A stretch of DNA of 47,747 nucleotides from Promethearchaeota archaeon (GTDB lineage: Archaea > Asgardarchaeota > Thorarchaeia > Thorarchaeales > Thorarchaeaceae): positions 1-47,747 of the forward strand of contig JBHLPF010000029.1 of assembly GCA_048939765.1 (NCBI GenBank), written 5' to 3'. The first letter of the stretch is position 1. Each line of letters starts with the position of its first letter. Shown piece after piece: positions 20,101 through 31,550 of this stretch. Both the position numbers and the translations under genes were made by a program. The notes beneath the pieces were generated by a model. The model saw only the letters and a program-made list of their open reading frames with translations. It did not search any database and was not told where the DNA came from.

Positions 20101-20661
20101 CTAGAGTCCCAGGTCTGCTCTTGCTTCGATTTCCTGCTGATCCTGTAGTATCTTCTTCATTTGATGGCGAAGCTGAGCCTTGAGCTTAATCATATCATGG
20201 TCGAGACCAAAATAATCAGCAAAGAGGGGCGTAGTCTTCAGCGACTTACTCCTTCCTTCAGGAATCGCCTCAATGAACTTCTTCTCAATCAGTTCTTTGA
20301 TATGGTCATAGCAGTGAGTCCCTCTCTCAGCCACAAGCTCCGATTGTAGGATGGGCTGTTTCAAGGCCACATAAACTAGTGTCTGAAGCGTGGCGAATGA
20401 TAGAAGTCCACCCGGGATAAGTTTCGCGACATGAGGAGTCAATTCAGGCCTGAGTTGCATCACCCATCGCTCTCGGGGAAGCTCCACAACTTCAAGTGCT
20501 CCCTTTCGTTTATTGTACATATGACCAATCTCTTCCAACACTCGTTTTGTAGAGGACTCAGCTTTTCCCACAACAGCAGCCAGCTCCTCTATCGAAATTG
20601 GCCTTCCAGCCACATAGAGGGCAGCCTCTAGTTTCACCTTGTCATCATCCATAGAACTCAC
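20101..20661 (-). CDS. scpB: SMC-Scp complex KITE subunit
   Basis: Motifs LEAALY, TL..VA.KQPI, RG and TT..F.DYFGL; overlaps the scpA stop. Confidence 0.92.
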   Translation of the reverse strand: MSSMDDDKVKLEAALYVAGRPISIEELAAVVGKAESSTKRVLEEIGHMYNKRKGALEVVELPRERWVMQLRPELTPHVAKLIPGGLLSFATLQTLVYVALKQPILQSELVAERGTHCYDHIKELIEKKFIEAIPEGRSKSLKTTPLFADYFGLDHDMIKLKAQLRHQMKKILQDQQEIEARADLGL

Positions 20662-21374
20662 TTCGTTTCGATAGATGGATGTATCTCATCTTCCTCCTCA
20701 GACGGGGGAGGGGGAGGAAGCATCTTCACCCAGATGACATCATCTTCATCCATCCAGATGTCAATAAACGCTCTTCCATAGAGGTGAAGCAGGGCAAAGA
20801 AGACACGGACAATCTCCCTTCGAGTATTGTTCATAAGAATATCAACAAACTTTGCAGTTTCACCAATTTCCAATATTCTCAAGAGATCGTCATAGACTTC
20901 AGTTATGTTCTCCTCCACATCTGCCCTTGTAGTTTCCATTTTGAAGTCCATTGGCTCTATGCTGGGTCGATATCCTTTCTTCCGCGGAATAGCGTGCTGA
21001 CGAGGACCTTTGCTCAACACTCGGTCCATCGCTATTAGCAGTTCTTGAAGAGTGACTCGTTGATTGCTCACTCTAAATGGAGGTCGAATCAGAGGAATGA
21101 CAAGTTCTTCATCATCTGCATCCTTATCCGGAGGAAGAATCCCAAGCTCAACGAGTTCACGAGTCTTCCTCATGAATATGACAGATGCCGAGTACAGCGC
21201 ACTTCCTGAGATTCTGAAGTCAATGTCCCCTAGGCGTTTCATCTCACGAATGAAACCTGCAACTAGCTTACCGACATCAACATTCCACGGCTTGATCTTA
21301 TCCAGTTGAAGTACATCAGTGAGGAGAATGTAAGGCGGGGATGCCCAGAATGGTGAGTCCTCTTCCTCACTCAT
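20658..21374 (-). CDS. scpA: Kleisin, segregation and condensation protein A
   Basis: Motifs I.PW.VD, VTLQELL.A and C-terminal wHTH V..FFALLHL; lies between smc and scpB. Confidence 0.88.
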   Translation of the reverse strand: MSEEEDSPFWASPPYILLTDVLQLDKIKPWNVDVGKLVAGFIREMKRLGDIDFRISGSALYSASVIFMRKTRELVELGILPPDKDADDEELVIPLIRPPFRVSNQRVTLQELLIAMDRVLSKGPRQHAIPRKKGYRPSIEPMDFKMETTRADVEENITEVYDDLLRILEIGETAKFVDILMNNTRREIVRVFFALLHLYGRAFIDIWMDEDDVIWVKMLPPPPPSEEEDEIHPSIETK

Positions 21375-24300
21375 GCTACTTCTGCCACCTCCTCTAGGTC
21401 GAGCTTGACGATTCTTGAAATACCGTCCTGATTCGAAACGCCAACTAGGAGATCTGCCTTCCTGACTGTTGTCGTTCTCAAGGATACAACGATGAACTGG
21501 GATGATTTTGCCATCTCTGCGATAAGAAGGGCCACATTATGGGCATTGACATCATCTAATGCAGCATCAATCTCATCGAACACATAGAAGCTTGCTGGAT
21601 TATACATCTGGATGGCAAATATGAGCGCAAGACCCGTGATAGTCTTCTCGCCGCCACTCATGGCGTCCAGCGTCACCAGTTCTTTCCCTCTGGGTTTGGA
21701 TCTAACGGTGATACCGCCCATAAGTGGATGCTCTGGATTCTCAAGCATAAGTGTCGCCTCACCACCAGGTGAGAGCTTCGCAAAGACCTTTGCAAAGTTG
21801 TCTGCTATGTCATTGTACACCTGCAGGAATTTCCTAGTCTTCTCCGCTTCAATCTCTTCCATAAAAGCAAGAATCTCTTTATGTTCCTCCTCAAGTCGCG
21901 TCTTCTTGTCAACAATCTCCTCGTATTGGTCCTTCTCGATATCATAATCCGTGAGAGCCTTTAAGTTGACAGGTCCCAACACATCGAGCTCTCTCTCGAA
22001 TTCCTTTATCTTGTCATCGAAGGTATCAATCTCTTTGTAAGTCAGCTCCCGCTCCTTCGCCTTCTTGGCCATTTCCTCACTGGCATCTGCGAGTTCATTC
22101 AATTCGGCTGTAAGTCCAACCAAGTCGCTTTCGAGTCGTGATTGCTCCGTCTGGAGTCTATAGACTGCTTTCTCATTCGCAGTCTGCTCCTCCCGAATCT
22201 CCTCATGACGGAATCTGAGGTTTCGGAGATGTTCTTTCAACTCAAGCTGACGTACTCGTTTGTCCTTCACCGCCTCGTCTATCTTCTCACGTTCGGTCTT
22301 CAGCTTCTCAAAGTCCTGTTCTTTCTCCTTCAAATCAGATTGCAGCGCATCTACTCGTTTCTCCATGTCTGGAATACCCTTTTGCACCGTCTTCAGGCGA
22401 ACATCTAGCTCGGTGAGCTTCGGCTTGAGACGTTCATCCAGTGCTACTTTCAGACCAGTTATTTCGCTTGTCAGAACCTCGCGTTCTTGGTTATGGTGAT
22501 TGAGAACTTCTTTGAGATCCTTTAGATACTGAGTTAGTTTGGCGGTGTCGGATGTAGCCAAGGTTTCATTGGCCTCATCTCTTTGTTCTCTGACCCTCTC
22601 TCTGTGCTCTGACAGCTCAGAGTCCCTCTCCTGAAGCTCCGAAATCTGAGTTTCGAGTTCCTTGATTGTAACTTGAGCCTTGCTGATCTTCTCTTTGAGA
22701 AGGGCAGTCCTATTCTCTTTCTCTTCTAATCGTTCTTCAAGTCCTTCAAGTTCGAGCTTCGCTCTGTAGTTATTCTTCGAGAGGTCTTGAATCTCCAGGT
22801 CCAGCTTGCTCTTTTCCTTTTGAAGGCTATCCCGCTGATTGCGTAACTCTGACAATATCTCACTTAGTCCCTTGAGACGTTCGGCAATCTCTGGACTGGT
22901 GTCTTCCAGTTGAAGAGAGAGACCGGTCGCAGGTTTGTAGTAGTGACCGCCAGTAATCAGACCTGACCGTTCAACCAGATCGCCCTCTAGTGATACTGCT
23001 CTACGCCCCTTGAATCCCATTGCCTTTGCGGTTTCAAAGTCCTCCGTGACTAACGTGTCTTGGAAAACAAACTCGAAGGCTGGTCTCATTTTCTCATCGA
23101 ATTTTACAAGGTCAATCGCCAGGCCTATGACACCACGGTCATGAGGGACTCTCCCTGGCTTTTTGGTACTGATTCTATTGAGTGGGATGAATGAAGCTCT
23201 GCCAACCTTCTCAATCTTAAGTATGTTAACACATTTAGTGGCGACATCGTCATTCTCTACCACTATATGGGTGAGCCTGCTCCCTCCAGCGATTTCCATA
23301 GCTGAGGCATACTCAGAGTCGATTGTACCCAGCTCAGCTACTGTTCCATGGATGCCTTCCACAGTCTTTGAGTCACGGAGTTCGAGAATTCGACGGATTG
23401 CACGTTGTCGCTTTAGGAATGCTTCTTCAGCCTCTTTCAAAGCATCCTGTCGTGCTTGGACGCGAATTAGCTCCTCTTTTGTCTTTTCGACTATCTGGGC
23501 TGATTCTCGAACCTGCGCTTCTACCGTCCTGAGATTGTTCTCAATTCTTGCGACTTCATCTCCCTTGTTCCCTTCATTCTCTTCCGCTTGCTTGAGGGTT
23601 TCACGTCTTTCCGGTATGACTCTGCGAAGGTCTGACAGCTCTTCTTCCGTCTTTTCCAGCATCTCTGTTGAATCACGAAGCTCCTCATAGTTCATTCCAA
23701 GCTCTTTGCCATCGGTCTTTATCGCTGAACGAACCTCAGACACCCCTTCATCAAGCGCTCTCATCTGATTATTGAGATCTTGTAGCCTTAGTGTGATCTC
23801 AAATGATGTTGCTTGTTCCTTCTCTATTCGGTCCTCTAATCCGCTAATCTTGTTTGTACAGCCAAGTATCTCCTCATCCAATCTGGAAAGCTCTTGGTCT
23901 TTCTCCTTAACGAGCGCGTCTGAACCACTCACCTGTTCTTGGATTGACTGAATTTCAACCTCGACAGAAGTTCGCTCATCCATCTTCGTGTTGTATTCGC
24001 CCTGCATGCGTTCAAGATCTGCTCTGGCATGGTCTACAGCTGCTGAAACAACTCCGTATTGCTCTGAGATTCTAGCAGAGTCTCCGCCGGTTATTTGGTC
24101 AATTTCTCCATCAATGCTCTCGATCTCGAGGTCAGTGTCACCAATGCCCTGTTCCACTTCAACAAGTTCCCTGGAGAGGTTCTCCGCCTCTTCTGCTCTC
24201 TCGCCGAGAGTTTCTTGGATAGTTTCAATCCTGCTCTTTCCTTTGATAGCCCGCCAAGCTATGCTGTCGATTCTGACCTGTTTTATCTGCTTGTGAAGAC

Positions 24301-24961
24301 TCTGATGTCTGCGGGCATCAGTCATTTCTTCTTCAAGCTTCTCAAGTTGGCGCCTTCGTTCCTGAAGCTGCATCTCAACCTTTCCGAGATTAGTTTCGCT
24401 CTCTGCGAGTCTCTTGAGCGCACGCTCCTTTTGTTCATCGTATGCAGATATTCCAGCAATCTCTTCTATCAGCTTGCGCCTGTCTGTGGGGCTTACTTTT
24501 ACAATCTGTGCGATCTCTCCTTGTAGAACCAGATTGTATCCATTGGGATCGACACCAATTGCCCCTAGGACCTCTATGACCTGCGTTCTTGTTACAACTT
24601 TGCCATTGATTCGACATGTGGACTTGCCGGAATCATCAAGCTCTCTCTCAATCACAACTTTGTCTGAATCTACCTGCAGCTTTCTATCTCTGTTATCAAA
24701 ATGAAGCTCTACAGTAGCAGACTTGGCTTTGGGAGGCATATCCGGTTTTGGTGGCGAATACAGAAGGTCAGAGAACACGTTTGCACGAAGTGTCTTTGCG
24801 CTGAGCTGCCCAAGTACGAACAATACTGCATCAATGACGTTTGACTTGCCTGATCCATTAGGTCCAACAATACATGTGAAGCCCTCGTTGAGCTTGATGG
24901 TGACCGTGTCTCGTCCAAATGACTTGAAGCCCTTGCATACAAGCTTCTCTATGTGGACCAA
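21371..24961 (-). CDS. smc: Chromosome segregation ATPase SMC
   Basis: Walker A GPNGSGKSN, Q-loop LQG, hinge GIHGTVAEL..GRASFIPL..G.ITGG, signature MSGGEK, Walker B FDEIDAALD; long coiled coils. Confidence 0.98.
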   Translation of the reverse strand: MVHIEKLVCKGFKSFGRDTVTIKLNEGFTCIVGPNGSGKSNVIDAVLFVLGQLSAKTLRANVFSDLLYSPPKPDMPPKAKSATVELHFDNRDRKLQVDSDKVVIERELDDSGKSTCRINGKVVTRTQVIEVLGAIGVDPNGYNLVLQGEIAQIVKVSPTDRRKLIEEIAGISAYDEQKERALKRLAESETNLGKVEMQLQERRRQLEKLEEEMTDARRHQSLHKQIKQVRIDSIAWRAIKGKSRIETIQETLGERAEEAENLSRELVEVEQGIGDTDLEIESIDGEIDQITGGDSARISEQYGVVSAAVDHARADLERMQGEYNTKMDERTSVEVEIQSIQEQVSGSDALVKEKDQELSRLDEEILGCTNKISGLEDRIEKEQATSFEITLRLQDLNNQMRALDEGVSEVRSAIKTDGKELGMNYEELRDSTEMLEKTEEELSDLRRVIPERRETLKQAEENEGNKGDEVARIENNLRTVEAQVRESAQIVEKTKEELIRVQARQDALKEAEEAFLKRQRAIRRILELRDSKTVEGIHGTVAELGTIDSEYASAMEIAGGSRLTHIVVENDDVATKCVNILKIEKVGRASFIPLNRISTKKPGRVPHDRGVIGLAIDLVKFDEKMRPAFEFVFQDTLVTEDFETAKAMGFKGRRAVSLEGDLVERSGLITGGHYYKPATGLSLQLEDTSPEIAERLKGLSEILSELRNQRDSLQKEKSKLDLEIQDLSKNNYRAKLELEGLEERLEEKENRTALLKEKISKAQVTIKELETQISELQERDSELSEHRERVREQRDEANETLATSDTAKLTQYLKDLKEVLNHHNQEREVLTSEITGLKVALDERLKPKLTELDVRLKTVQKGIPDMEKRVDALQSDLKEKEQDFEKLKTEREKIDEAVKDKRVRQLELKEHLRNLRFRHEEIREEQTANEKAVYRLQTEQSRLESDLVGLTAELNELADASEEMAKKAKERELTYKEIDTFDDKIKEFERELDVLGPVNLKALTDYDIEKDQYEEIVDKKTRLEEEHKEILAFMEEIEAEKTRKFLQVYNDIADNFAKVFAKLSPGGEATLMLENPEHPLMGGITVRSKPRGKELVTLDAMSGGEKTITGLALIFAIQMYNPASFYVFDEIDAALDDVNAHNVALLIAEMAKSSQFIVVSLRTTTVRKADLLVGVSNQDGISRIVKLDLEEVAEVA

Positions 24962-25156
24962 GACGCTCCCTTCCCGGCTCTAGACGATTATCATATGATA
25001 GGCGTGTCTGTTGTACAGCCTTGATATTGCACGGCCCTAAATATGATTGGTACTACCTTGGTATTACCCAGACCTTATTCAGGTATGCCTATGCATCTTC
25101 GACTAGCAAAAGAAGTCCAAAAAAAGGTAACTCTGCAGCATTTTGGATTCAGAAAG

Positions 25157-25519
25157 TCAGCTAACCATTGCCACTAAGGCTCGCTTAAGAGCCATTCTTA
25201 GCAGTCCCATGGACTCGCGAGCTCCCTCTCCTGCAATTCCAGCAAGAACTACCTTTACATCGCCTAGAATTACGATGTAGCCATTGTCAGCCGCGACGGA
25301 TACCTCTTTCAATCCTCCCTTGTCTAGTCCACTGGATAGTTGCGAGGAGTTTCCAGCAATCTTGACTGCAAGGTTTGCGACATCAGAATGCTTGATGCCC
25401 CCACTGATAGTATGACCAAAGATCACGTTCCCCTTTGCATCGCATACTACTATGCCCTCTAAGTTCTCATTGGCCGCCATTGTATCGGCAATCACTTGCT
25501 TTACCTTTTCTTCATCCAC
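25157..25519 (-). CDS. Roadblock/LC7 domain protein (divergently transcribed)
   Basis: Roadblock pattern: GIVVCD..G.V, long helix, L.KG.L.EV.V....GYIVI, C-terminal GLLR helix. Confidence 0.8.
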   Translation of the reverse strand: MDEEKVKQVIADTMAANENLEGIVVCDAKGNVIFGHTISGGIKHSDVANLAVKIAGNSSQLSSGLDKGGLKEVSVAADNGYIVILGDVKVVLAGIAGEGARESMGLLRMALKRALVAMVS

Positions 25520-25679
25520 TTTGACATACTCTCCGTGGGCACTGCCTGTCTGAATGGTGCTATTCTTCTAAAAACCGTTTCTCCTATAAATGGGAGTATT
25601 CCTTTCGCGGATGATTTTCGTAGCTTAGGTTAAATACGCAAATGTGAACCTAGGCCCAAGACTTTTGGAGTCGAATTTA

Positions 25680-27305
25680 ATGCCTATGCTGAGAACTACT
25701 TCGGAGGCTTTTCCTTCATCAAAGGATGTACTGAAAGACCTCCCATACGTCTTGCGAGTCGAATTTGGAGACTTGGCACGAGACGTTACTAAGATTGTTG
25801 GTAAGCCAATTGCTTGCCATAAATGCAATGGCTTCCTTCTCAGTGTAGATCAGATACTAGAGGATGACAAAGTCGGAAAGCACTTTGTCTGTCCTTTCTG
25901 TGGTACACTGAATGTTATTGAAGGGGAGATCGTTGTCGCAGGCGACGATACAGACTTCGTTGTGAAACCACCACAAGACATAGAGACCGGTACTGATACA
26001 ATCTCAACAGGCGGCCGGTCTTTCTTGGCGTTGATAGACGTTTCTGGGTCCATGGCTGGCGAAAACTTGGCAGCAGTAAAGCGCAGTCTAAACACATCAA
26101 TTGACAGTCTGGCAGCCAACACTCCAGACGCAATGTTTGGTCTGATTGAGTTTGAAAGCACTGTGGTCTGCAGAAATCTGGAAACCGGGGAGCCCATCGA
26201 ACTCCCGAGAGAGTCCTTCCAAAGTCTGGACTCGATCATGGATTCGACGAAGAGCCTGTTGGACAAAATCAAGATGGTCAAGGTCGGTGACAAGTCATCA
26301 GATCTGAAACGACATGTTGCTGCGCTGAGAGACCAGGGTGGAACTGCACTGGGGCCAGCTGTGGGTATGGCCTACACAATAGCCAAACACCGAGATGTTG
26401 GTCGAATTGTGCTTCTCACCGACGGGCTTGCCAATGAAGGAATTGGCGCCCTTGAGGGATACCAGGTCACTCCTGCCAACAAATACTACGAAGACCTCGG
26501 TGATGAGTTCAGAAAGATTGGAGCCGCCTTCGATGTCGTAGGTATCGCGTCAGGTGGAGCCATGGAACTCAAGACACTGGGTCTGTTGCCGGAGGCTACT
26601 GGAGGCACTATGTACTATGTGACACCTAATGAACTGGATAGAAGCCTCTCAGAGCTTGCAGGAGCAGCCCTTCTGGGGCGTGATGTGGAGGTCAAACTCA
26701 TCACACCTGAGGGAGTCAGGCTCAAGGATGCATCTGGTGCATCCCGTGCAGTTCTTGAGGAGCTCAAGAAGAAGGGCGGCGGAAAGATTGGAGTTGTCGG
26801 TGAGGATCATGAGCTATACTTTGAGGTAGAGCCTGAGAAGAAGATCAAGGATGAGGAAGTCCCGATTCAGGTACAGGTCTCTTACACTGACAATGAGGGT
26901 GCGAGAAGGGTCCGTGCAGTGACAACCAAACTGAAGGTTTCTGAGAAAGAGGATGAGATCATGAAGACTCTCGACCCAACTGTAGGCGCGACCTTTGTCA
27001 CTCAGAAAGCTGGTGAGGATGCAGTAAGGGGCGACCGCAAGAAGGGCAAGGAGAGACTTGCCTTATTCAGGACCGCCATGAAGGCTCGTGCAAAGGCTGC
27101 ACCCAAGCCCGTCAAGGCGATGCTCGATAAGGCCGATGATGTCCTTGAGAGTGAAGAGATGGAGCTTGAGCGTCAGGAGGCACGGTTGATGGAAGCCCCT
27201 GCTGGAGGCGCTGCACCATCTGCAGCCGCTGACATGACTGCGGTCGAAAACCTAGCTCAAATGAAGCGTAGCTCTAAGAGGATGTTTGACGACAACGAAG
27301 AATAA
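25680..27305 (+). CDS. Sec23/Sec24-like Zn finger + vWA + beta-sandwich protein
   Basis: PIACHKC...FVCPFCGTLN; MIDAS DVSGSM, GGTALG and LLTDG; TGG; QVSYTD.EG.RRVR..T. Start placed at ATG 25680/25686 because TTAAATA (25630-36) lies too close to GTG 25644. Confidence 0.8.
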   Translation: MPMLRTTSEAFPSSKDVLKDLPYVLRVEFGDLARDVTKIVGKPIACHKCNGFLLSVDQILEDDKVGKHFVCPFCGTLNVIEGEIVVAGDDTDFVVKPPQDIETGTDTISTGGRSFLALIDVSGSMAGENLAAVKRSLNTSIDSLAANTPDAMFGLIEFESTVVCRNLETGEPIELPRESFQSLDSIMDSTKSLLDKIKMVKVGDKSSDLKRHVAALRDQGGTALGPAVGMAYTIAKHRDVGRIVLLTDGLANEGIGALEGYQVTPANKYYEDLGDEFRKIGAAFDVVGIASGGAMELKTLGLLPEATGGTMYYVTPNELDRSLSELAGAALLGRDVEVKLITPEGVRLKDASGASRAVLEELKKKGGGKIGVVGEDHELYFEVEPEKKIKDEEVPIQVQVSYTDNEGARRVRAVTTKLKVSEKEDEIMKTLDPTVGATFVTQKAGEDAVRGDRKKGKERLALFRTAMKARAKAAPKPVKAMLDKADDVLESEEMELERQEARLMEAPAGGAAPSAAADMTAVENLAQMKRSSKRMFDDNEE

Positions 27306-27314
27306 ACGATAACA

Positions 27315-27357
27315 GAGTGGCGTTGCTGCGAGCAGCGTCGCTCAACCCTCTTTTTCT
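27315..27357 (+). terminator. Hairpin plus T-tract after the Sec23/24-like gene
   Basis: GAGTGGCGTTGCT-GCG-AGCAGCGTCGCTC (13 bp, 3 G-U pairs), then CTCTTTTTCT. Confidence 0.55.
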
Positions 27358-27499
27358 GTCATACAGGCTTCGGTTGGTACAAGTTTCAAAATGCGCAAAC
27401 GGGCTCTCTTACCATAATAATGTCATCATAACTGCTAAATACCCAACTGCGGCGTTAGGATTTGTCAAATGGACAATTGAAAGCAGCGGAGATTCTACT

Positions 27500-27796
27500 T
27501 TGATAAGTCAAGAGCGGCTCAACAGCATCCTCCAACAACTAAAGGCTCAAGACGGCGTCCGTGGGGTCGTGGTCACCACCATGGAAGGTCTTCCTCTGAG
27601 CAGTGACCTGGATGCAGAAACAACCGAGAACGTCGCTGCAATCATAACCTCTCTTGTAGGAAAGGCACTGGACACGGTGCGTCTCCTACGCGAGGGATCA
27701 TTGTCCTTCCTTACCTTGGACACAACACAAGGTCAAATAAACATCGCACCCGATGAAAAAGAGGGCCTGATATTAGTGGTCCTCAAGAAGAACTAG
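27500..27796 (+). CDS. Short roadblock protein resembling dynein light chain roadblock (DYNLRB/LC7)
   Basis: TTG at 27500 after GGAGA; GV.GVVV...EGLP..S, KA..TVR.L, L.FL and I.IAPD; no C-terminal helix. Confidence 0.85.
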   Translation: MISQERLNSILQQLKAQDGVRGVVVTTMEGLPLSSDLDAETTENVAAIITSLVGKALDTVRLLREGSLSFLTLDTTQGQINIAPDEKEGLILVVLKKN

Positions 27797-27815
27797 TATG
27801 TATGGGGCTATATCC

Positions 27816-28286
27816 ATGAGCGATCCGAAAGCGTTCGACAGAATCCTCACGGACATCATCCGTCAAGAAAAGGGAATCCGCAAGGTCATCCTTGTAGATA
27901 AGACAGGTCTGACTATTGCTAACGTGAGCAAGCTGTCATATTATCCAGTGGACGTCGACAGTATCGGCGCAATTGCGTCTGCGGTCTTTTGTGCCTCAGA
28001 GGAACAAGGAAAGAATCTGCAGATCGGCGAGCTCGAGATTGTCACGAGCGAGTTTAGCGAGGGCAAGATATTCGCATCTGCGTGCGGCAAGGGTGTGCTG
28101 TGCGTTGTGTCTGATGCCGATGTTAATATAGGCATGATACGTCTTGTCATGAAGAAGCAGGGTGTTCAGCTCGCAGACGAGCTTGACAAGTTCCTGGCAG
28201 TGGAGCCACTAGCTCCCAGCGGTAAGGACAAGGAGCTGGATGAGGAGGACCTCAAGTCCGCCCTCGCAGAGCTTGAGAGGGTCTGA
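27816..28286 (+). CDS. MglB-like roadblock protein with acidic C-terminal helix
   Basis: LVDKTGL.IA, A.ASA.F, NIGMIRL; tail DEEDLKSALAELERV. Confidence 0.85.
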   Translation: MSDPKAFDRILTDIIRQEKGIRKVILVDKTGLTIANVSKLSYYPVDVDSIGAIASAVFCASEEQGKNLQIGELEIVTSEFSEGKIFASACGKGVLCVVSDADVNIGMIRLVMKKQGVQLADELDKFLAVEPLAPSGKDKELDEEDLKSALAELERV

Positions 28287-28441
28287 CCGCTTCGAGGCGG
28301 TTGACCTTGTACGCTCTACAGCCCCAATTGTGCCACAAACCCTTTTATGAGACCACACTTTTGGGCTTATCAGCCCCCCGAGCAGGGCCTCCATTTGAGG
28401 CCAAGATGAGCACAGGCAGTGACGCAGCGAGGTGAACAGCG

Positions 28442-29005
28442 ATACGTAAAGACGACAAAGGCCGCATACATCTCAAGTTGGTCTTCTACGGACCATCACT
28501 CGGAGGCAAAACAACTGCACTTCGTTGGCTCTACGGAAAAGTTGAAGGTCTCCAGAAGGGAGAGTTCACTGCAATCGAGGATGAAACCAACCGCACTCTG
28601 TTCTTTGACTATGTCCCAATGAGTGCAGGAGGTCGAGTGCTCTTCGATGTGTTCACAGTCGCTGGTCAGAAGCGTCATAGGCACCAGAGAAAAGTAGTGC
28701 TCCAGGGCACTGATGGCATACTGTTTGTTGCTGACTCATCCCCAGATCAGAGGGATGAGAACACAGAGAGCTTCGAAGAACTCAAGCTCTTCCTAGGAGA
28801 TGCTCTGGGCCGTGAGATACCCATAGTGGTCATGCTAAACAAGCGAGATTTACCGAATAGAATGTCGCGTGATGAGATGCTAGACCTTCTCGGTCTTGGG
28901 GGCAATGTTCCAATCTATGAAACGATTGCTGTACAAGGCGTAGGAGTTAAGAGGGCGTTTCAGGCAATAGCGAGGGAAGTCATCCTCAAAAGAATGTACA
29001 AATGA
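28442..29005 (+). CDS. mglA: MglA-family small GTPase (start uncertain, probably ATA 28442)
   Basis: G1 YGPSLGGKTT, RTLFFD, G3 TVAGQ, G.DG..FVADS, G4 NKRD and G5 A..G.GV. Confidence 0.88.
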   Translation: MRKDDKGRIHLKLVFYGPSLGGKTTALRWLYGKVEGLQKGEFTAIEDETNRTLFFDYVPMSAGGRVLFDVFTVAGQKRHRHQRKVVLQGTDGILFVADSSPDQRDENTESFEELKLFLGDALGREIPIVVMLNKRDLPNRMSRDEMLDLLGLGGNVPIYETIAVQGVGVKRAFQAIAREVILKRMYK

Positions 29006-29022
29006 TTGACTAGGTGAGGCGA

Positions 29023-29394
29023 ATGTCAGAGACCCGCGGAGACACTTTGGAAGGCGTTCTTAATGAACTTCAGGGCAGCATACCTGAGATTGAGGCGTGC
29101 GCAATAGTCAGCGTAGAAGGGCTTCCGATTGTGTCAGCTCTGCCCACAGATGTTGATGAGGCAAAGGTAGCTGCTATGACTGCAGCAATGCTTACTCTTG
29201 GAGAAAAGGCTGCAATCGAACTTGGGAAGGGCAATCTGGAGCAGGTCAACATCAAGGGTATAGACGGCTGGCTACTTGTTATTCAGGCCGGAATGAACGC
29301 ATGCCTTACGGTGTCTACCACCGCCAGTGCCAAGCTAGGAATGGTCTTTCTGGAGATGAAACGAGCAGCTGAGAAAGTCTCGGGGATGATCTAG
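29023..29394 (+). CDS. Roadblock/LC7 (MglB-like) protein
   Basis: Motifs AIVSVEGLPI.S, VAAM.AAML.LG, EL.KG.LEQV and KLGMV. Confidence 0.9.
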   Translation: MSETRGDTLEGVLNELQGSIPEIEACAIVSVEGLPIVSALPTDVDEAKVAAMTAAMLTLGEKAAIELGKGNLEQVNIKGIDGWLLVIQAGMNACLTVSTTASAKLGMVFLEMKRAAEKVSGMI

Positions 29395-29474
29395 TCATAG
29401 TACACAATCTATCTGAACATCAAGCCTTTTAGGGGCTGCAAATAGATTCAGAGTGAGATAGGACGTGCAATTGA

Positions 29475-30242
29475 GTGAACCTAACAGGCCCCGTGTATCG
29501 ACTCTATGAATATTTTCTACATAGGCAGTTGCACAAAGAAAAGGCGCCTCGCCATGTTGGAATTATTCTAGACGGAAATCGCCGCTATGCACGTCAACAT
29601 GGACTTGAAGTCCCTTGGTTTGGGCACCAGAAAGGCGCTCAGAAGGTCATGGAGGTCTTGAGAATCCTCTGGGAAGCCGGAGTCAAGGTCTGCACTCTCT
29701 ATGCCTTTTCAATAGAAAACTTCCAGCGAAGTCAGCATGAAGTCGATGAGATAATGGCCATTGCCAAAGACAAGTTCAGTGAGGTTGTGGGCAATCCGGA
29801 TGTCCACAAGCATAGGGTTCGTATCCAAGCCATCGGAAGGGTAGACCTGTTGCCAGATGAGGTCCAACTGGCCATAGCACAGGCCGAAGAGGAAACTCAG
29901 GCCTACAATGATCACATTCTGAATGTCGCCATTGGCTATTCAGGTAGAGCAGAGCTTGTGGATGCGGTACAGGCGATTGGAGAGAAGATTAAGTCAGGCA
30001 GTCTAGACCCCTCCAAAGTCGATGAGGAATTAATTGAGAAGCACCTCTATACCAACGGCGTCCCTGATCCCGACCTGATAATCAGAACATCTGGCGAAGA
30101 ACGCCTCTCAGGCTTCCTTCTTTGGCAATCTGCATATTCAGAGCTATACTTCGCGCAGATGTACTGGCCTGCAGTAAGACGGATTGACATCTGGAGAGCA
30201 CTCCGATCATACGAAAGACGGGCTCGCCGTTTTGGCTCATGA
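29475..30242 (+). CDS. uppS: cis-Prenyltransferase (polyprenyl diphosphate synthase)
   Basis: Motifs HVGIILDGNRRYA, YAFSIENF.R, YSGR.E, PDLIIRTSGE.RLSGFLLWQ and RRFG. Confidence 0.96.
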   Translation: MNLTGPVYRLYEYFLHRQLHKEKAPRHVGIILDGNRRYARQHGLEVPWFGHQKGAQKVMEVLRILWEAGVKVCTLYAFSIENFQRSQHEVDEIMAIAKDKFSEVVGNPDVHKHRVRIQAIGRVDLLPDEVQLAIAQAEEETQAYNDHILNVAIGYSGRAELVDAVQAIGEKIKSGSLDPSKVDEELIEKHLYTNGVPDPDLIIRTSGEERLSGFLLWQSAYSELYFAQMYWPAVRRIDIWRALRSYERRARRFGS

Positions 30243-30335: not shown

Positions 30336-31550
30336 ATGGAGGAGACTATATCCTTGGCACGCAAGCCAATTGATGTCTACCAAGGTCTGATTACGACAAA
30401 GCTATCGGTAGATAGTGTCTCACAGATCGATTCTCTAATCGGACGTTATGAGGACCAAATGTTAGCCGGTCACAAGCTCTCCTTTCACCTCAAAAAATTC
30501 ATAGAATTCTGGACTAGACACTGCGCATTTCTTGATAACCGTGAAACAACAACCATGTCAGATCTAACCATAGCCATAGATCTGTTAGATTACTTTACCT
30601 CAACCTCAAAATGGTGGACAATGACACGAGAGGATCCCGGACTCATCTTGAAACTTCCATCACGTGACCCCCGTGAATTCATCAAATCGATTCCTCTGGT
30701 TCAGATGGGGGCTGAAACTCTCGGTCGTGTTACTGGTGCAAGGGATCGACTCGTTCGTTTCCTAGAGGAACATGAATTGGGTGACGATAGAACTCGTGCC
30801 ACACTGGCTGAGCATCTAGTATCGATCTGGCTGCTCCTTTGTGGTTTTTCCTGCAAAGGACAAGGACGGAACATCACCACGGAAGAAGATTTTGAAACCG
30901 CATATGATATTGTTCGGATTCTGCTCTTCTACATGTCCCTAAACGATTTCAAGGCACTCACCGCAGTGCGTCAGATTGCCACTGATCCTAATCTTCCCAA
31001 AATTGCGGTGATTGGTTTCTCTCCCGGGTTTGAACGAAGACTAGACTCTTCGCTTGCCGCGAGCCTGGAGCATGTGCATGGTGAATTTCTGACAAATCTG
31101 GCCTCTTCGACTCCCGGTGCATCAAGAAACATCCTCACCAACTCTTTGCGCATCCTAGGGCAGCTACAAGCTATGAAACTTGAGATGACAAGGATTGAGA
31201 AAGAGGACTATGACTCGATTATTGTCGGGGCCATGGGCCTCCTTGAAAGGCTTGATGTGCCTGCGACGCTGCTCCAGAACGAAGATGAAGTTGTAGCACT
31301 GTTCAAGAGTCTACAACCCGGTGAAGGTGTTGAAGAGAAGCTATCTTTTCTAACAAAGAGAATAGAGGGATTGCTGGTAGACTCAGCTGGCAACAGAGAC
31401 TACGTGCTTCAATATTCGAGAATGGTTCCTCGAATTATAGCTCTCCTACTACTGGTCGCTGCGGCAACCAAAACGGAGCCGACAGCGCCTCTTCAAGACC
31501 AAGATTTGAAGAGAGGTCTCATTCTGCTCAACAGACTGTTCAGTGACTAG
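30336..31550 (+). CDS. Hypothetical helical protein with four AAA+-lid-like repeats
   Basis: 404 aa; CTTTATAT TATA-like box upstream; repeats described in findings. Confidence 0.75.
   Translation: MEETISLARKPIDVYQGLITTKLSVDSVSQIDSLIGRYEDQMLAGHKLSFHLKKFIEFWTRHCAFLDNRETTTMSDLTIAIDLLDYFTSTSKWWTMTREDPGLILKLPSRDPREFIKSIPLVQMGAETLGRVTGARDRLVRFLEEHELGDDRTRATLAEHLVSIWLLLCGFSCKGQGRNITTEEDFETAYDIVRILLFYMSLNDFKALTAVRQIATDPNLPKIAVIGFSPGFERRLDSSLAASLEHVHGEFLTNLASSTPGASRNILTNSLRILGQLQAMKLEMTRIEKEDYDSIIVGAMGLLERLDVPATLLQNEDEVVALFKSLQPGEGVEEKLSFLTKRIEGLLVDSAGNRDYVLQYSRMVPRIIALLLLVAAATKTEPTAPLQDQDLKRGLILLNRLFSD

Follow-up and report, generated by a model that had tools for sequence, protein, structure and literature searches.

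The gene module described here is closest to a polarity switch, MglA/MglB, known from Myxococcus xanthus and Thermus thermophilus (PDB 3t12, 3t1q and 6izw), which has an accessory roadblock protein, MglC. Three further systems resemble parts of the same locus: the Sec23/Sec24 inner coat of coat protein complex II (COPII; PDB 1m2v, 1m2o and 3eh1), ArnB of Sulfolobus acidocaldarius (PDB 8s05), and the Ragulator-Rag system, in which LAMTOR2/3 and LAMTOR4/5 heterodimers are found with the Rag GTPases. ArnB, together with ArnA, has been described as the archaeal counterpart of the Sec23/24 core, and its MIDAS (metal ion-dependent adhesion site) has also been described (PMC12852372). We analyzed a 47,747-nt stretch from a Promethearchaeota archaeon of the Thorarchaeota (contig JBHLPF010000029.1, assembly GCA_048939765.1), and this whole stretch is designated the window. 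The locus under study, at positions 25157–29394, encodes, between smc and uppS, a divergently oriented roadblock protein (RblA), a Sec23/24-like protein, two further roadblock proteins (RblB and RblC), an MglA-type small GTPase and a fourth roadblock protein (RblD). The six contiguous genes and their order and orientation, as given in an earlier note on this DNA, were borne out by the open reading frame listing and by Pfam. Orthologues of each of the six were found in dozens of genomes, and the genes are real. We consider it likely that the locus is a composite, in which an ancient, Asgard-wide module of an MglA-type GTPase and four roadblock proteins has received a relocated Sec23/24-like gene, the product of which probably works independently.

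As in the MglA/MglB system, the GTPase carries the MglA hallmarks (TVAGQ, RTLFFD and NKRD), roadblock genes adjoin it, and RblC has an MglB-like C-terminal helix. Unlike that system, the module has four roadblock paralogues, one of them LC7/dynein-light-chain-like, instead of one MglB homodimer; it has no RomR/RomX or motility genes nearby, and it is an archaeal set of genes, extremely conserved and present in nearly the whole phylum. The Sec23/24-like protein resembles Sec23 and Sec24 in its domain order and in its Foldseek and profile matches, but it has no gelsolin domain, its MIDAS is complete (DxSxS, T, D), it is single-copy, and the adjoining GTPase is of the MglA type. It also resembles ArnB (Foldseek E 9e-16), which has a von Willebrand factor A (vWA) domain with a complete MIDAS, a beta-sandwich and a C-terminal helical domain. 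ArnAB receives its zinc finger in trans from the FHA-bearing ArnA, whereas the window protein, like Sec23/24, carries its own in cis; ArnAB acts as a regulator of the archaellum under the control of phosphorylation, whereas no kinase or FHA gene was noted beside the Sec23/24-like gene of the window. The Ragulator-Rag system similarly combines several roadblock subunits, long and short (LC7-type), with a small GTPase, and RblC weakly matches the LAMTOR2/MP1 type. However, the GTPase of the window is MglA-type, with a single domain of 187 amino acids and without a C-terminal roadblock, and only one short (LC7-type) subunit is evident. No LAMTOR1-like anchor came to light, though no search was aimed at one.

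Distribution of the module and of the Sec23/24-like gene

The genes of the locus and those flanking it are listed below, with the evidence for each in parentheses. The start codons were revised from orthologue alignments.

21371–24961, minus strand: smc (Pfam SMC)
25157–25519, minus strand: RblA, divergent roadblock paralogue, 120 amino acids (Pfam match below the cut-off; PDB 9jq8)
25680–27305, plus strand: Sec23/24-like protein, open reading frame of 553 amino acids (Pfam, alignment, AlphaFold2 model, Foldseek, profile against the PDB)
27500–27796, plus strand: RblB, short LC7-type roadblock protein without a C-terminal helix, 98 amino acids (PDB matches, orthologues)
27798–28286, plus strand: RblC, MglB-type roadblock protein with an acidic C-terminal helix (...DEEDLKSALAELERV) (Pfam, PDB)
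28442–29005, plus strand: MglA-type small GTPase, 187 amino acids (PDB, alignment of 27 orthologues)
29014–29394, plus strand: RblD, full-length roadblock protein, 126 amino acids, immediately 3' of the GTPase gene (Pfam, PDB)
29475–30242: uppS (Pfam cis-prenyltransferase, UppS)

Of 400 genomes in the phylum, 369 had a match to the GTPase (E ≤ 1e-25). Twenty loci were sampled around the best GTPase match, from 11 other Asgard families and from one Thorarchaeota genome, G315. RblD was present in 19 of them, RblC and RblB in 16 each and the divergent RblA in 10, and the Sec23/24-like gene was present in none. The arrangement RblA|RblB-RblC-GTPase-RblD(-uppS) recurs in the 11 further families. 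The earlier note had read the six genes as one module of a GTPase switch, several roadblock regulators and a coat-adaptor-like effector. The first two parts of this reading, an MglA-type GTPase with several distinct roadblock proteins as a conserved unit, are upheld by this distribution. The Sec23/24-like member is not, because its linkage to the GTPase and roadblock genes, on which the note itself had made the effector role depend, fails outside one family.

Within the Thorarchaeota, the identities of the module proteins were 91–100% for the GTPase, 81–99% for RblC, 77–98% for RblD and 75–91% for RblB, and those of the Sec23/24-like protein and SMC were 53–92% and 59–91%, respectively. The GTPase was 100% identical across several genera, between which the Sec23/24-like protein was only about 75% identical; it was 91–97% identical in the most divergent Thorarchaeota, 84% in the sister family and 57–67% in other Asgard families. 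The conservation of the GTPase far exceeds that of SMC or UppS at the same loci.

A match to the Sec23/24-like gene was found in 148 of the 400 genomes, including 78 of 85 in its own family, the Thorarchaeota. The copies in about ten other families were 26–40% identical. The neighbourhoods of this gene were examined at 40 loci and then at 48 more. Every Thorarchaeota locus on a contig of sufficient length showed the order scpA-smc / RblA / Sec23/24-like / RblB-RblC / GTPase-RblD / uppS / orf404, and only in this family was the gene located between RblA and RblB. The sampled Hermod-, Frey-, Heimdall- and Loki-type orthologues lie among unrelated housekeeping genes, and the neighbours outside the Thorarchaeota encode Fe-alcohol dehydrogenase, DNA methyltransferase, threonine synthase, enoyl-CoA hydratase, PhoU_div and Nre. 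G117, a closed Freyarchaeota genome, has the Sec23/24-like gene at 2.83 Mb and the GTPase gene at 1.97 Mb, 860 kb apart. In G311, of the sister family f2, the gap between RblA and RblB is about 140 bp, and the Sec23/24-like gene is on a different contig from the GTPase gene. The same separation was seen in G315, in which the gap is 261 bp, although three congeners of this genome have the six-gene form. The maximum-likelihood tree of the Sec23/24-like proteins follows taxonomy, and the Thorarchaeota copies form one clade (100/99 support) that includes the copy of G315, which is unlinked and sits on a long branch. This topology points to one relocation in the Thorarchaeota stem and one later loss.

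The flanks of the module are also shared. The genes smc-scpA precede it in Hermod- and Freyarchaeota and in the sister family f2, and uppS often follows. The order smc-scpA | module | uppS (window 20658–30242; loci L153, L157, L158, L165, L166 and L171) is common to these lineages and the Thorarchaeota, with uppS directly after RblD in most families. On the 3' side of uppS, at 30336–31550, the window encodes a 404-amino-acid protein (orf404) with no Pfam match, which is syntenic in the Thorarchaeota and fast-evolving (38–83% identity). The spacer between RblC and the GTPase gene is 23–80 nt in other families and is expanded in the Thorarchaeota (window 28287–28441). In different Thorarchaeota genomes, this spacer is an insertion hot spot, with a ClC chloride channel with CBS domains in one case and a 293-amino-acid protein with no Pfam match in another, and a further genome has a Zn-ribbon gene between the GTPase gene and RblD (insertions at L036 2107–6033, L071 4108–5991 and L068 10480–11265). 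These unrelated insertions suggest that the Thorarchaeota cluster has repeatedly taken up foreign genes, of which the Sec23/24-like gene may simply be the oldest.

Structures of Asgard roadblock and RBLC7 proteins have been solved by Tran et al. (PMC10933270), who also reported that the small GTPase genes of MK-D1 are generally not in operons with roadblock genes. The Asgard-specific core genes listed by Liu et al. (bioRxiv 10.1101/2020.10.19.343400) include three families of roadblock/longin proteins and two of small GTPases; the operon described there is a different one, in which a LAMTOR1-like protein is combined with a Rab-like GTPase and a protein with a DENN domain. In the literature searched, we found no description of the four-roadblock MglA cluster, or of its Thorarchaeota-specific Sec23/24-like insert, as a unit.

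Properties of the encoded proteins

The GTPase of the window matched MglA chains in the PDB with E values from 3e-38 to 1e-37, while the best Arf match was at 6.5e-12, Rab7 at about 6e-8 and Sar1 at about 2e-7. In the alignment of 27 orthologues, G17, P18, G22, K23 and T24 of the P-loop GPSLGGKT (GPSLxGKT in the family) are invariant, in agreement with the P-loop pattern GxxxxGK[ST] of the MglA family. The G3 motif is T72-V-A74-G75-Q76, in which Thr replaces Asp; TxAGQ is invariant in the orthologues and aligns with TVPGQ of M. xanthus MglA, of which Thr78 is given as a feature in PMC3000849. R51 and T52 of switch I are likewise invariant, and the segment etnRTLFFD aligns with etdRTLFFD of MglA, in which Arg53 is the intrinsic arginine finger of the T. 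thermophilus protein. NKxD, represented by NKRD in the window, is also invariant. By these motifs and matches, the GTPase is classed as MglA-type and not as Arf/Sar-type.

The start of the GTPase was placed at a non-canonical ATA codon at 28442, because the first NTG codon (28478) falls inside strand beta-1. This ATA lies 6 nt past a Shine-Dalgarno-like GAGGTGA (28429–28435), and a conserved GGTG-type Shine-Dalgarno-like sequence is found a few nt before the equivalent codon in the Thorarchaeota GTPases. The start-equivalent codon was ATA or ATT in 5 of 13 Thorarchaeota sequences, and ATG, GTG or TTG in other genera. In the genomes with ATA or ATT, the open frame is only 189–193 amino acids, and the protein is 100% identical from residue 1. 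The initiation of this GTPase thus looks genuinely non-canonical.

Of the roadblock proteins, RblB, RblC and RblD exceeded the cut-off of Pfam Robl_LC7. RblA, which evolves faster than any other member of the conserved module, scored below it (19.4 bits against a cut-off of 23, E 9e-4); it matched the roadblock/LC7 structure PDB 9jq8 with an E value of 2e-7, and was also recovered by a profile made from all four roadblock families. RblB starts at TTG 27500, which gives a protein of 98 instead of 159 amino acids; this TTG is conserved in the Thorarchaeota, and the orthologues are 96–99 amino acids long. Its PDB matches were Odin RBLC7 (7F8F, E 4e-25) and human DYNLRB1 (E 1.5e-12). RblC, for which ATG 27816 is possibly the start, matched Robl_LC7 (E 7e-10) and MAPKK1_Int (E 5e-7) in Pfam and, weakly, MglB (E 6e-4) and LAMTOR2 (E 3e-3) in the PDB. 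Its tail motif, [DE]n-LKAALxELEK, also occurs in frames directly 5' of the GTPase gene in other families. Because it is present in families with and without the linkage, the acidic tail helix belongs to the module, as the C-terminal helix does to MglB, and is not a Thorarchaeota-specific ligand of the MIDAS. RblD matched Robl_LC7 with an E value of 7.5e-16 and PDB 7F8M, an Asgard Robl_LC7 protein, with 3e-22.

The open reading frame of the Sec23/24-like protein, which most likely starts at ATG 25680, matched Pfam Sec23_trunk with 42.6 bits (cut-off 27) and also VWA. Sec23_BS (32.8 bits, cut-off 33.5) and zf-Sec23_Sec24 (E 0.003) were just below their cut-offs. The order of its domains, a Zn finger, a vWA-like trunk, a beta-sandwich and a helical region, is that of the Sec23/Sec24 family. 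Across 39 aligned orthologues, drawn from about ten Asgard families, four Cys residues and a complete MIDAS (D132-x-S134-G-S136, T234 and D260) are invariant, and the zinc ribbon lies in cis, fused into the same chain at about residues 55–92. An AlphaFold2 model (pLDDT 87.8, pTM 0.88) contains only helices beyond residue 436, with the C-terminus at 553. A gelsolin-like C-terminal domain was not found in this model, and without it the protein would have no Sec23-type arginine of a GTPase-activating protein (GAP). Sec24 and Sec23 ranked first in Foldseek (E 1e-29, TMq about 0.7), and next came 4fx5, a vWA protein from bacteria, and 8s05, the archaeal ArnB. With the family profile against the PDB, the E value was 4e-19 for Sec24 and 8e-7 for Sec23, and the alignment with Sec24 covered profile positions 44–474, which take in the zinc finger and run on into the helical region. 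Although named Sec23-like in the literature, the Asgard protein is, by profile, much closer to the cargo adaptor Sec24 than to the GAP Sec23. In the profile alignment, DVSQS and the Thr of the MIDAS are retained in yeast Sec24, with Gly in the position of the last Asp.

The genome of the window (88.5% complete) has a single match to PF04811, and this one copy means that it has no paralogous pair of Sec23 and Sec24. The Asgard Sec23-like proteins have already been described, and all of them are without a gelsolin domain (PMC11914678); the protein of the window belongs to this published type. In the same study, three Asgard Sec23-like proteins gave no nucleotide-dependent binding in a yeast assay with Asgard Arf, and its text contains no 'neighbo*', 'operon' or 'gene cluster'. 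A single complex prediction of the Sec23/24-like protein and the GTPase with GTP and Mg gave a score of 0.00 and a mark of 0.32, which weighs neither for nor against binding. Bacterial vWA proteins of Chloroflexota, Planctomycetota and Bacteroidota (L120–L151) align to the vWA part with 23–28% identity, and a few of them also align over the beta-sandwich and the helical part (residues 124–515). They are possible relatives of the ArnB/Sec24-type architecture.

Candidate control elements

The following candidate elements were located in the window. An Rfam scan of the entire window gave no match.

25630–25636, plus strand: TATA-like box TTAAATA about 45 nt 5' of the ATG, candidate own promoter of the Sec23/24-like gene (read from the sequence; putative function)
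27351–27355, plus strand: run of five T, terminator-like signal 46 nt past the stop codon of the Sec23/24-like gene (read from the sequence; putative function)
27391–27441, plus strand: control region of RblB, with the near-palindromic ATGCGCAA at 27391–27398 (about −109) and the TATA-like CTAAATA at 27435–27441 (about −65) (motif search and inspection by eye)
28333–28348, plus strand: CCACAAACCCTTTTAT, promoter-like element in the spacer between RblC and the GTPase gene (similarity to Thorarchaeota elements)

The spacer between the Sec23/24-like gene and RblB, which is 129–231 nt long in 13 Thorarchaeota genomes, was scanned by regular-expression search. The near-palindromic [AT]TGCGCAA (TTGCGCAA/ATGCGCAA) was found at −103 to −123 (about −109) of the RblB start in 12 of the 13 genomes. 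It lies about 43 nt 5' of the TATA-like box of RblB, is duplicated in two Thorarchaeota genomes, and is a candidate regulator-binding site. A TATA-like box of the CTAAAATA type was detected by pattern at −60 to −68 (about −66) in 11 of the 13, and the window and its nearest relative, L072, have the shorter variant CTAAATA at this position, as seen by eye. At the site of G315 (L152), from which the Sec23/24-like gene is missing, both the TGCGCAA and the TATA-like elements of RblB are kept at similar distances, and other families have TTTAAA or TTTATA boxes at similar distances 5' of RblB.

The Sec23/24-like gene has a different box, (C)TTAAWA, about 45–60 nt 5' of the start in most Thorarchaeota orthologues, often in the form cgattcaCTTAAWA. 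A run of at least five T was found 36–54 nt past its stop codon in 6 of the 13 genomes. Elements of the form ccacaaaGGCTTTTAT, which resemble CCACAAACCCTTTTAT, occur 5' of the GTPase gene in several Thorarchaeota genomes. The motif CCACAARNNYTWWWAT was tried as a shared promoter motif and was rejected, since it had one match in the window, but at least one match was also obtained in 19 of 100 shuffles; by pattern alone, the element at 28333–28348 is therefore not significant.

Relation of the Sec23/24-like protein to the module

The composite reading is built on the observed gene identities, distribution, synteny and conserved upstream motifs, and all of the biochemistry is inferred. The GTP hydrolysis of MglA is stimulated by its MglB dimer, and RblC and RblD are encoded beside the GTPase. 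From the homology with MglA/MglB, the switch face of the GTPase would be the binding surface of roadblock dimers, and as there are four distinct paralogues, these dimers are probably heterodimers. They would set the GTP/GDP state of the GTPase, aided by its own Arg51 and Gln76, and the tail helix of RblC may act as the C-terminal helix of MglB does. The Sec23/24-like gene would have moved once, in the Thorarchaeota stem, into the divergent RblA|RblB spacer, where it carries a promoter-like box of its own and, in about half the genomes, a T-run past its stop codon. The invariant MIDAS and Zn ribbon, together with the missing gelsolin/GAP domain, suggest a metal-dependent protein-binding scaffold of the ArnB/Sec24 type. 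Such a scaffold, and not a GAP or effector of the neighbouring GTPase, is most likely what the protein is, and its gene is most likely a lineage-specific neighbour of the module.

Several observations weigh against this separation of gene and module. In essentially all Thorarchaeota genomes whose contig is long enough (about 35 loci), the Sec23/24-like gene has been kept at its site, even where protein identity falls to 53%, and G315 is the sole exception that was seen. Outside the Thorarchaeota, 3 of about 20 distinct neighbourhoods of this gene have a roadblock or small GTPase gene nearby. In one genome of family f19, a roadblock gene is directly 5' of it; in the Loki-type genus f22g64, an Arf/Ras-like GTPase gene is directly 5'; and in another Loki-type genus, f22g70, a Rab-like GTPase gene is two genes 5', with an AhpC fragment between. 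When the Thorarchaeota are included, a roadblock or GTPase gene is the immediate neighbour in 3 of about 20 contexts, as compared with a rough expectation of 0.5–1 from gene density; over its 3.4 Mb, the genome of the window carries about 13 genes for roadblock proteins and 23 first-look candidates for GTPases. The comparison hints, weakly and post hoc, that the neighbourhoods are enriched for such genes. In addition, the separate promoter-like elements of the Sec23/24-like gene and RblB were recognized from motifs alone, and it is from these that we infer their transcription units. The loci themselves were the source of the roadblock and GTPase profiles, by which very divergent roadblock genes near the non-Thorarchaeota copies could have been missed. 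Three neighbours were considered individually and rejected. The small open reading frame c38, between the Rab-like GTPase and the Sec23/24-like gene of the Loki-type genus, was a candidate hidden roadblock and is an AhpC/redoxin fragment. The 5' neighbours of similar length in Hermod (c32) and in family f13 (c60) were weighed as candidates for a conserved but hidden partner; c32 proved to be Fe-alcohol dehydrogenase, and c60 gave no match in Pfam.

A rival reading is a lineage-specific recruitment: in the Thorarchaeota, the MglA-roadblock module would have gained the Sec23/24-like protein as a functional partner, and the position of the gene in the cluster would reflect co-regulation. For example, the MIDAS of this protein could dock on an acidic roadblock helix, or the protein could bind GTP-loaded MglA. 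The stable retention of the gene between RblA and RblB across the sampled Thorarchaeota genera and the sporadic neighbours in f19 and f22g64 are in line with such a partnership. The invariant complete MIDAS implies an acidic protein ligand, RblC bears a conserved acidic C-terminal helix, and LC7-type roadblock proteins like RblB accept the helix of a partner (PMC10933270). However, the flanking smc-scpA and uppS-orf404 are retained equally well, so that the linkage within the Thorarchaeota is inherited synteny, and the retention of the Sec23/24-like gene is no more than this background. It goes back to a single relocation event. In G315 the linkage was lost, yet the module proteins are as conserved as in the sister genome. 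Conservation of the MIDAS and of the RblC tail extends to lineages in which the genes are apart, and the promoter-like elements are separate and different. Among the longer or fused homologues of the Sec23/24-like protein, there was one Kelch/ankyrin/vWA protein of 1089 amino acids and no fusion with a GTPase or roadblock protein, which is weak evidence in the same direction. We regard such a recruitment as unlikely, and its sharper form, in which the MIDAS protein was captured by the ancient switch as a GTPase- or roadblock-controlled adaptor, as somewhat less probable still.

A proto-COPII reading, in which the six genes would be a GTPase-and-coat system from which eukaryotic vesicle budding descends, with the MglA-type GTPase in the place of Sar1 and the Sec23/24-like protein as adaptor or GAP, has the fold and domain order of Sec23/24 and the nearness to a small GTPase gene in the Thorarchaeota in its favour, but it is highly improbable and largely refuted by the distribution, since the linkage is absent from all sampled non-Thorarchaeota Asgard lineages, including those labelled Heimdall, the GTPase is not of the Arf/Sar type, the gelsolin domain bearing the catalytic arginine of Sec23 is missing (PMC11914678), the single copy leaves no Sec23/Sec24 pair, and the protein is closer by profile to Sec24 than to Sec23.

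If the Sec23/24-like protein did work with the neighbouring GTPase, which is unlikely given the comparative data, the locus would be a prokaryotic model of a GTPase switch acquiring a coat adaptor, in parallel to Sar1 and Sec23/24. As a captured adaptor, it would be a lineage-specific and experimentally tractable case. Because the gene is in the cluster only in the Thorarchaeota, its position is no evidence of a primitive vesicle coat, and the comparative data are a warning against a proto-COPII reading of the locus. The more solid and more interesting result is the Asgard-wide MglA-type GTPase with four different roadblock partners. This module is a good target for reconstitution, because it stands structurally between the bacterial MglA/MglB pair and the multi-roadblock GTPase platforms of eukaryotes.

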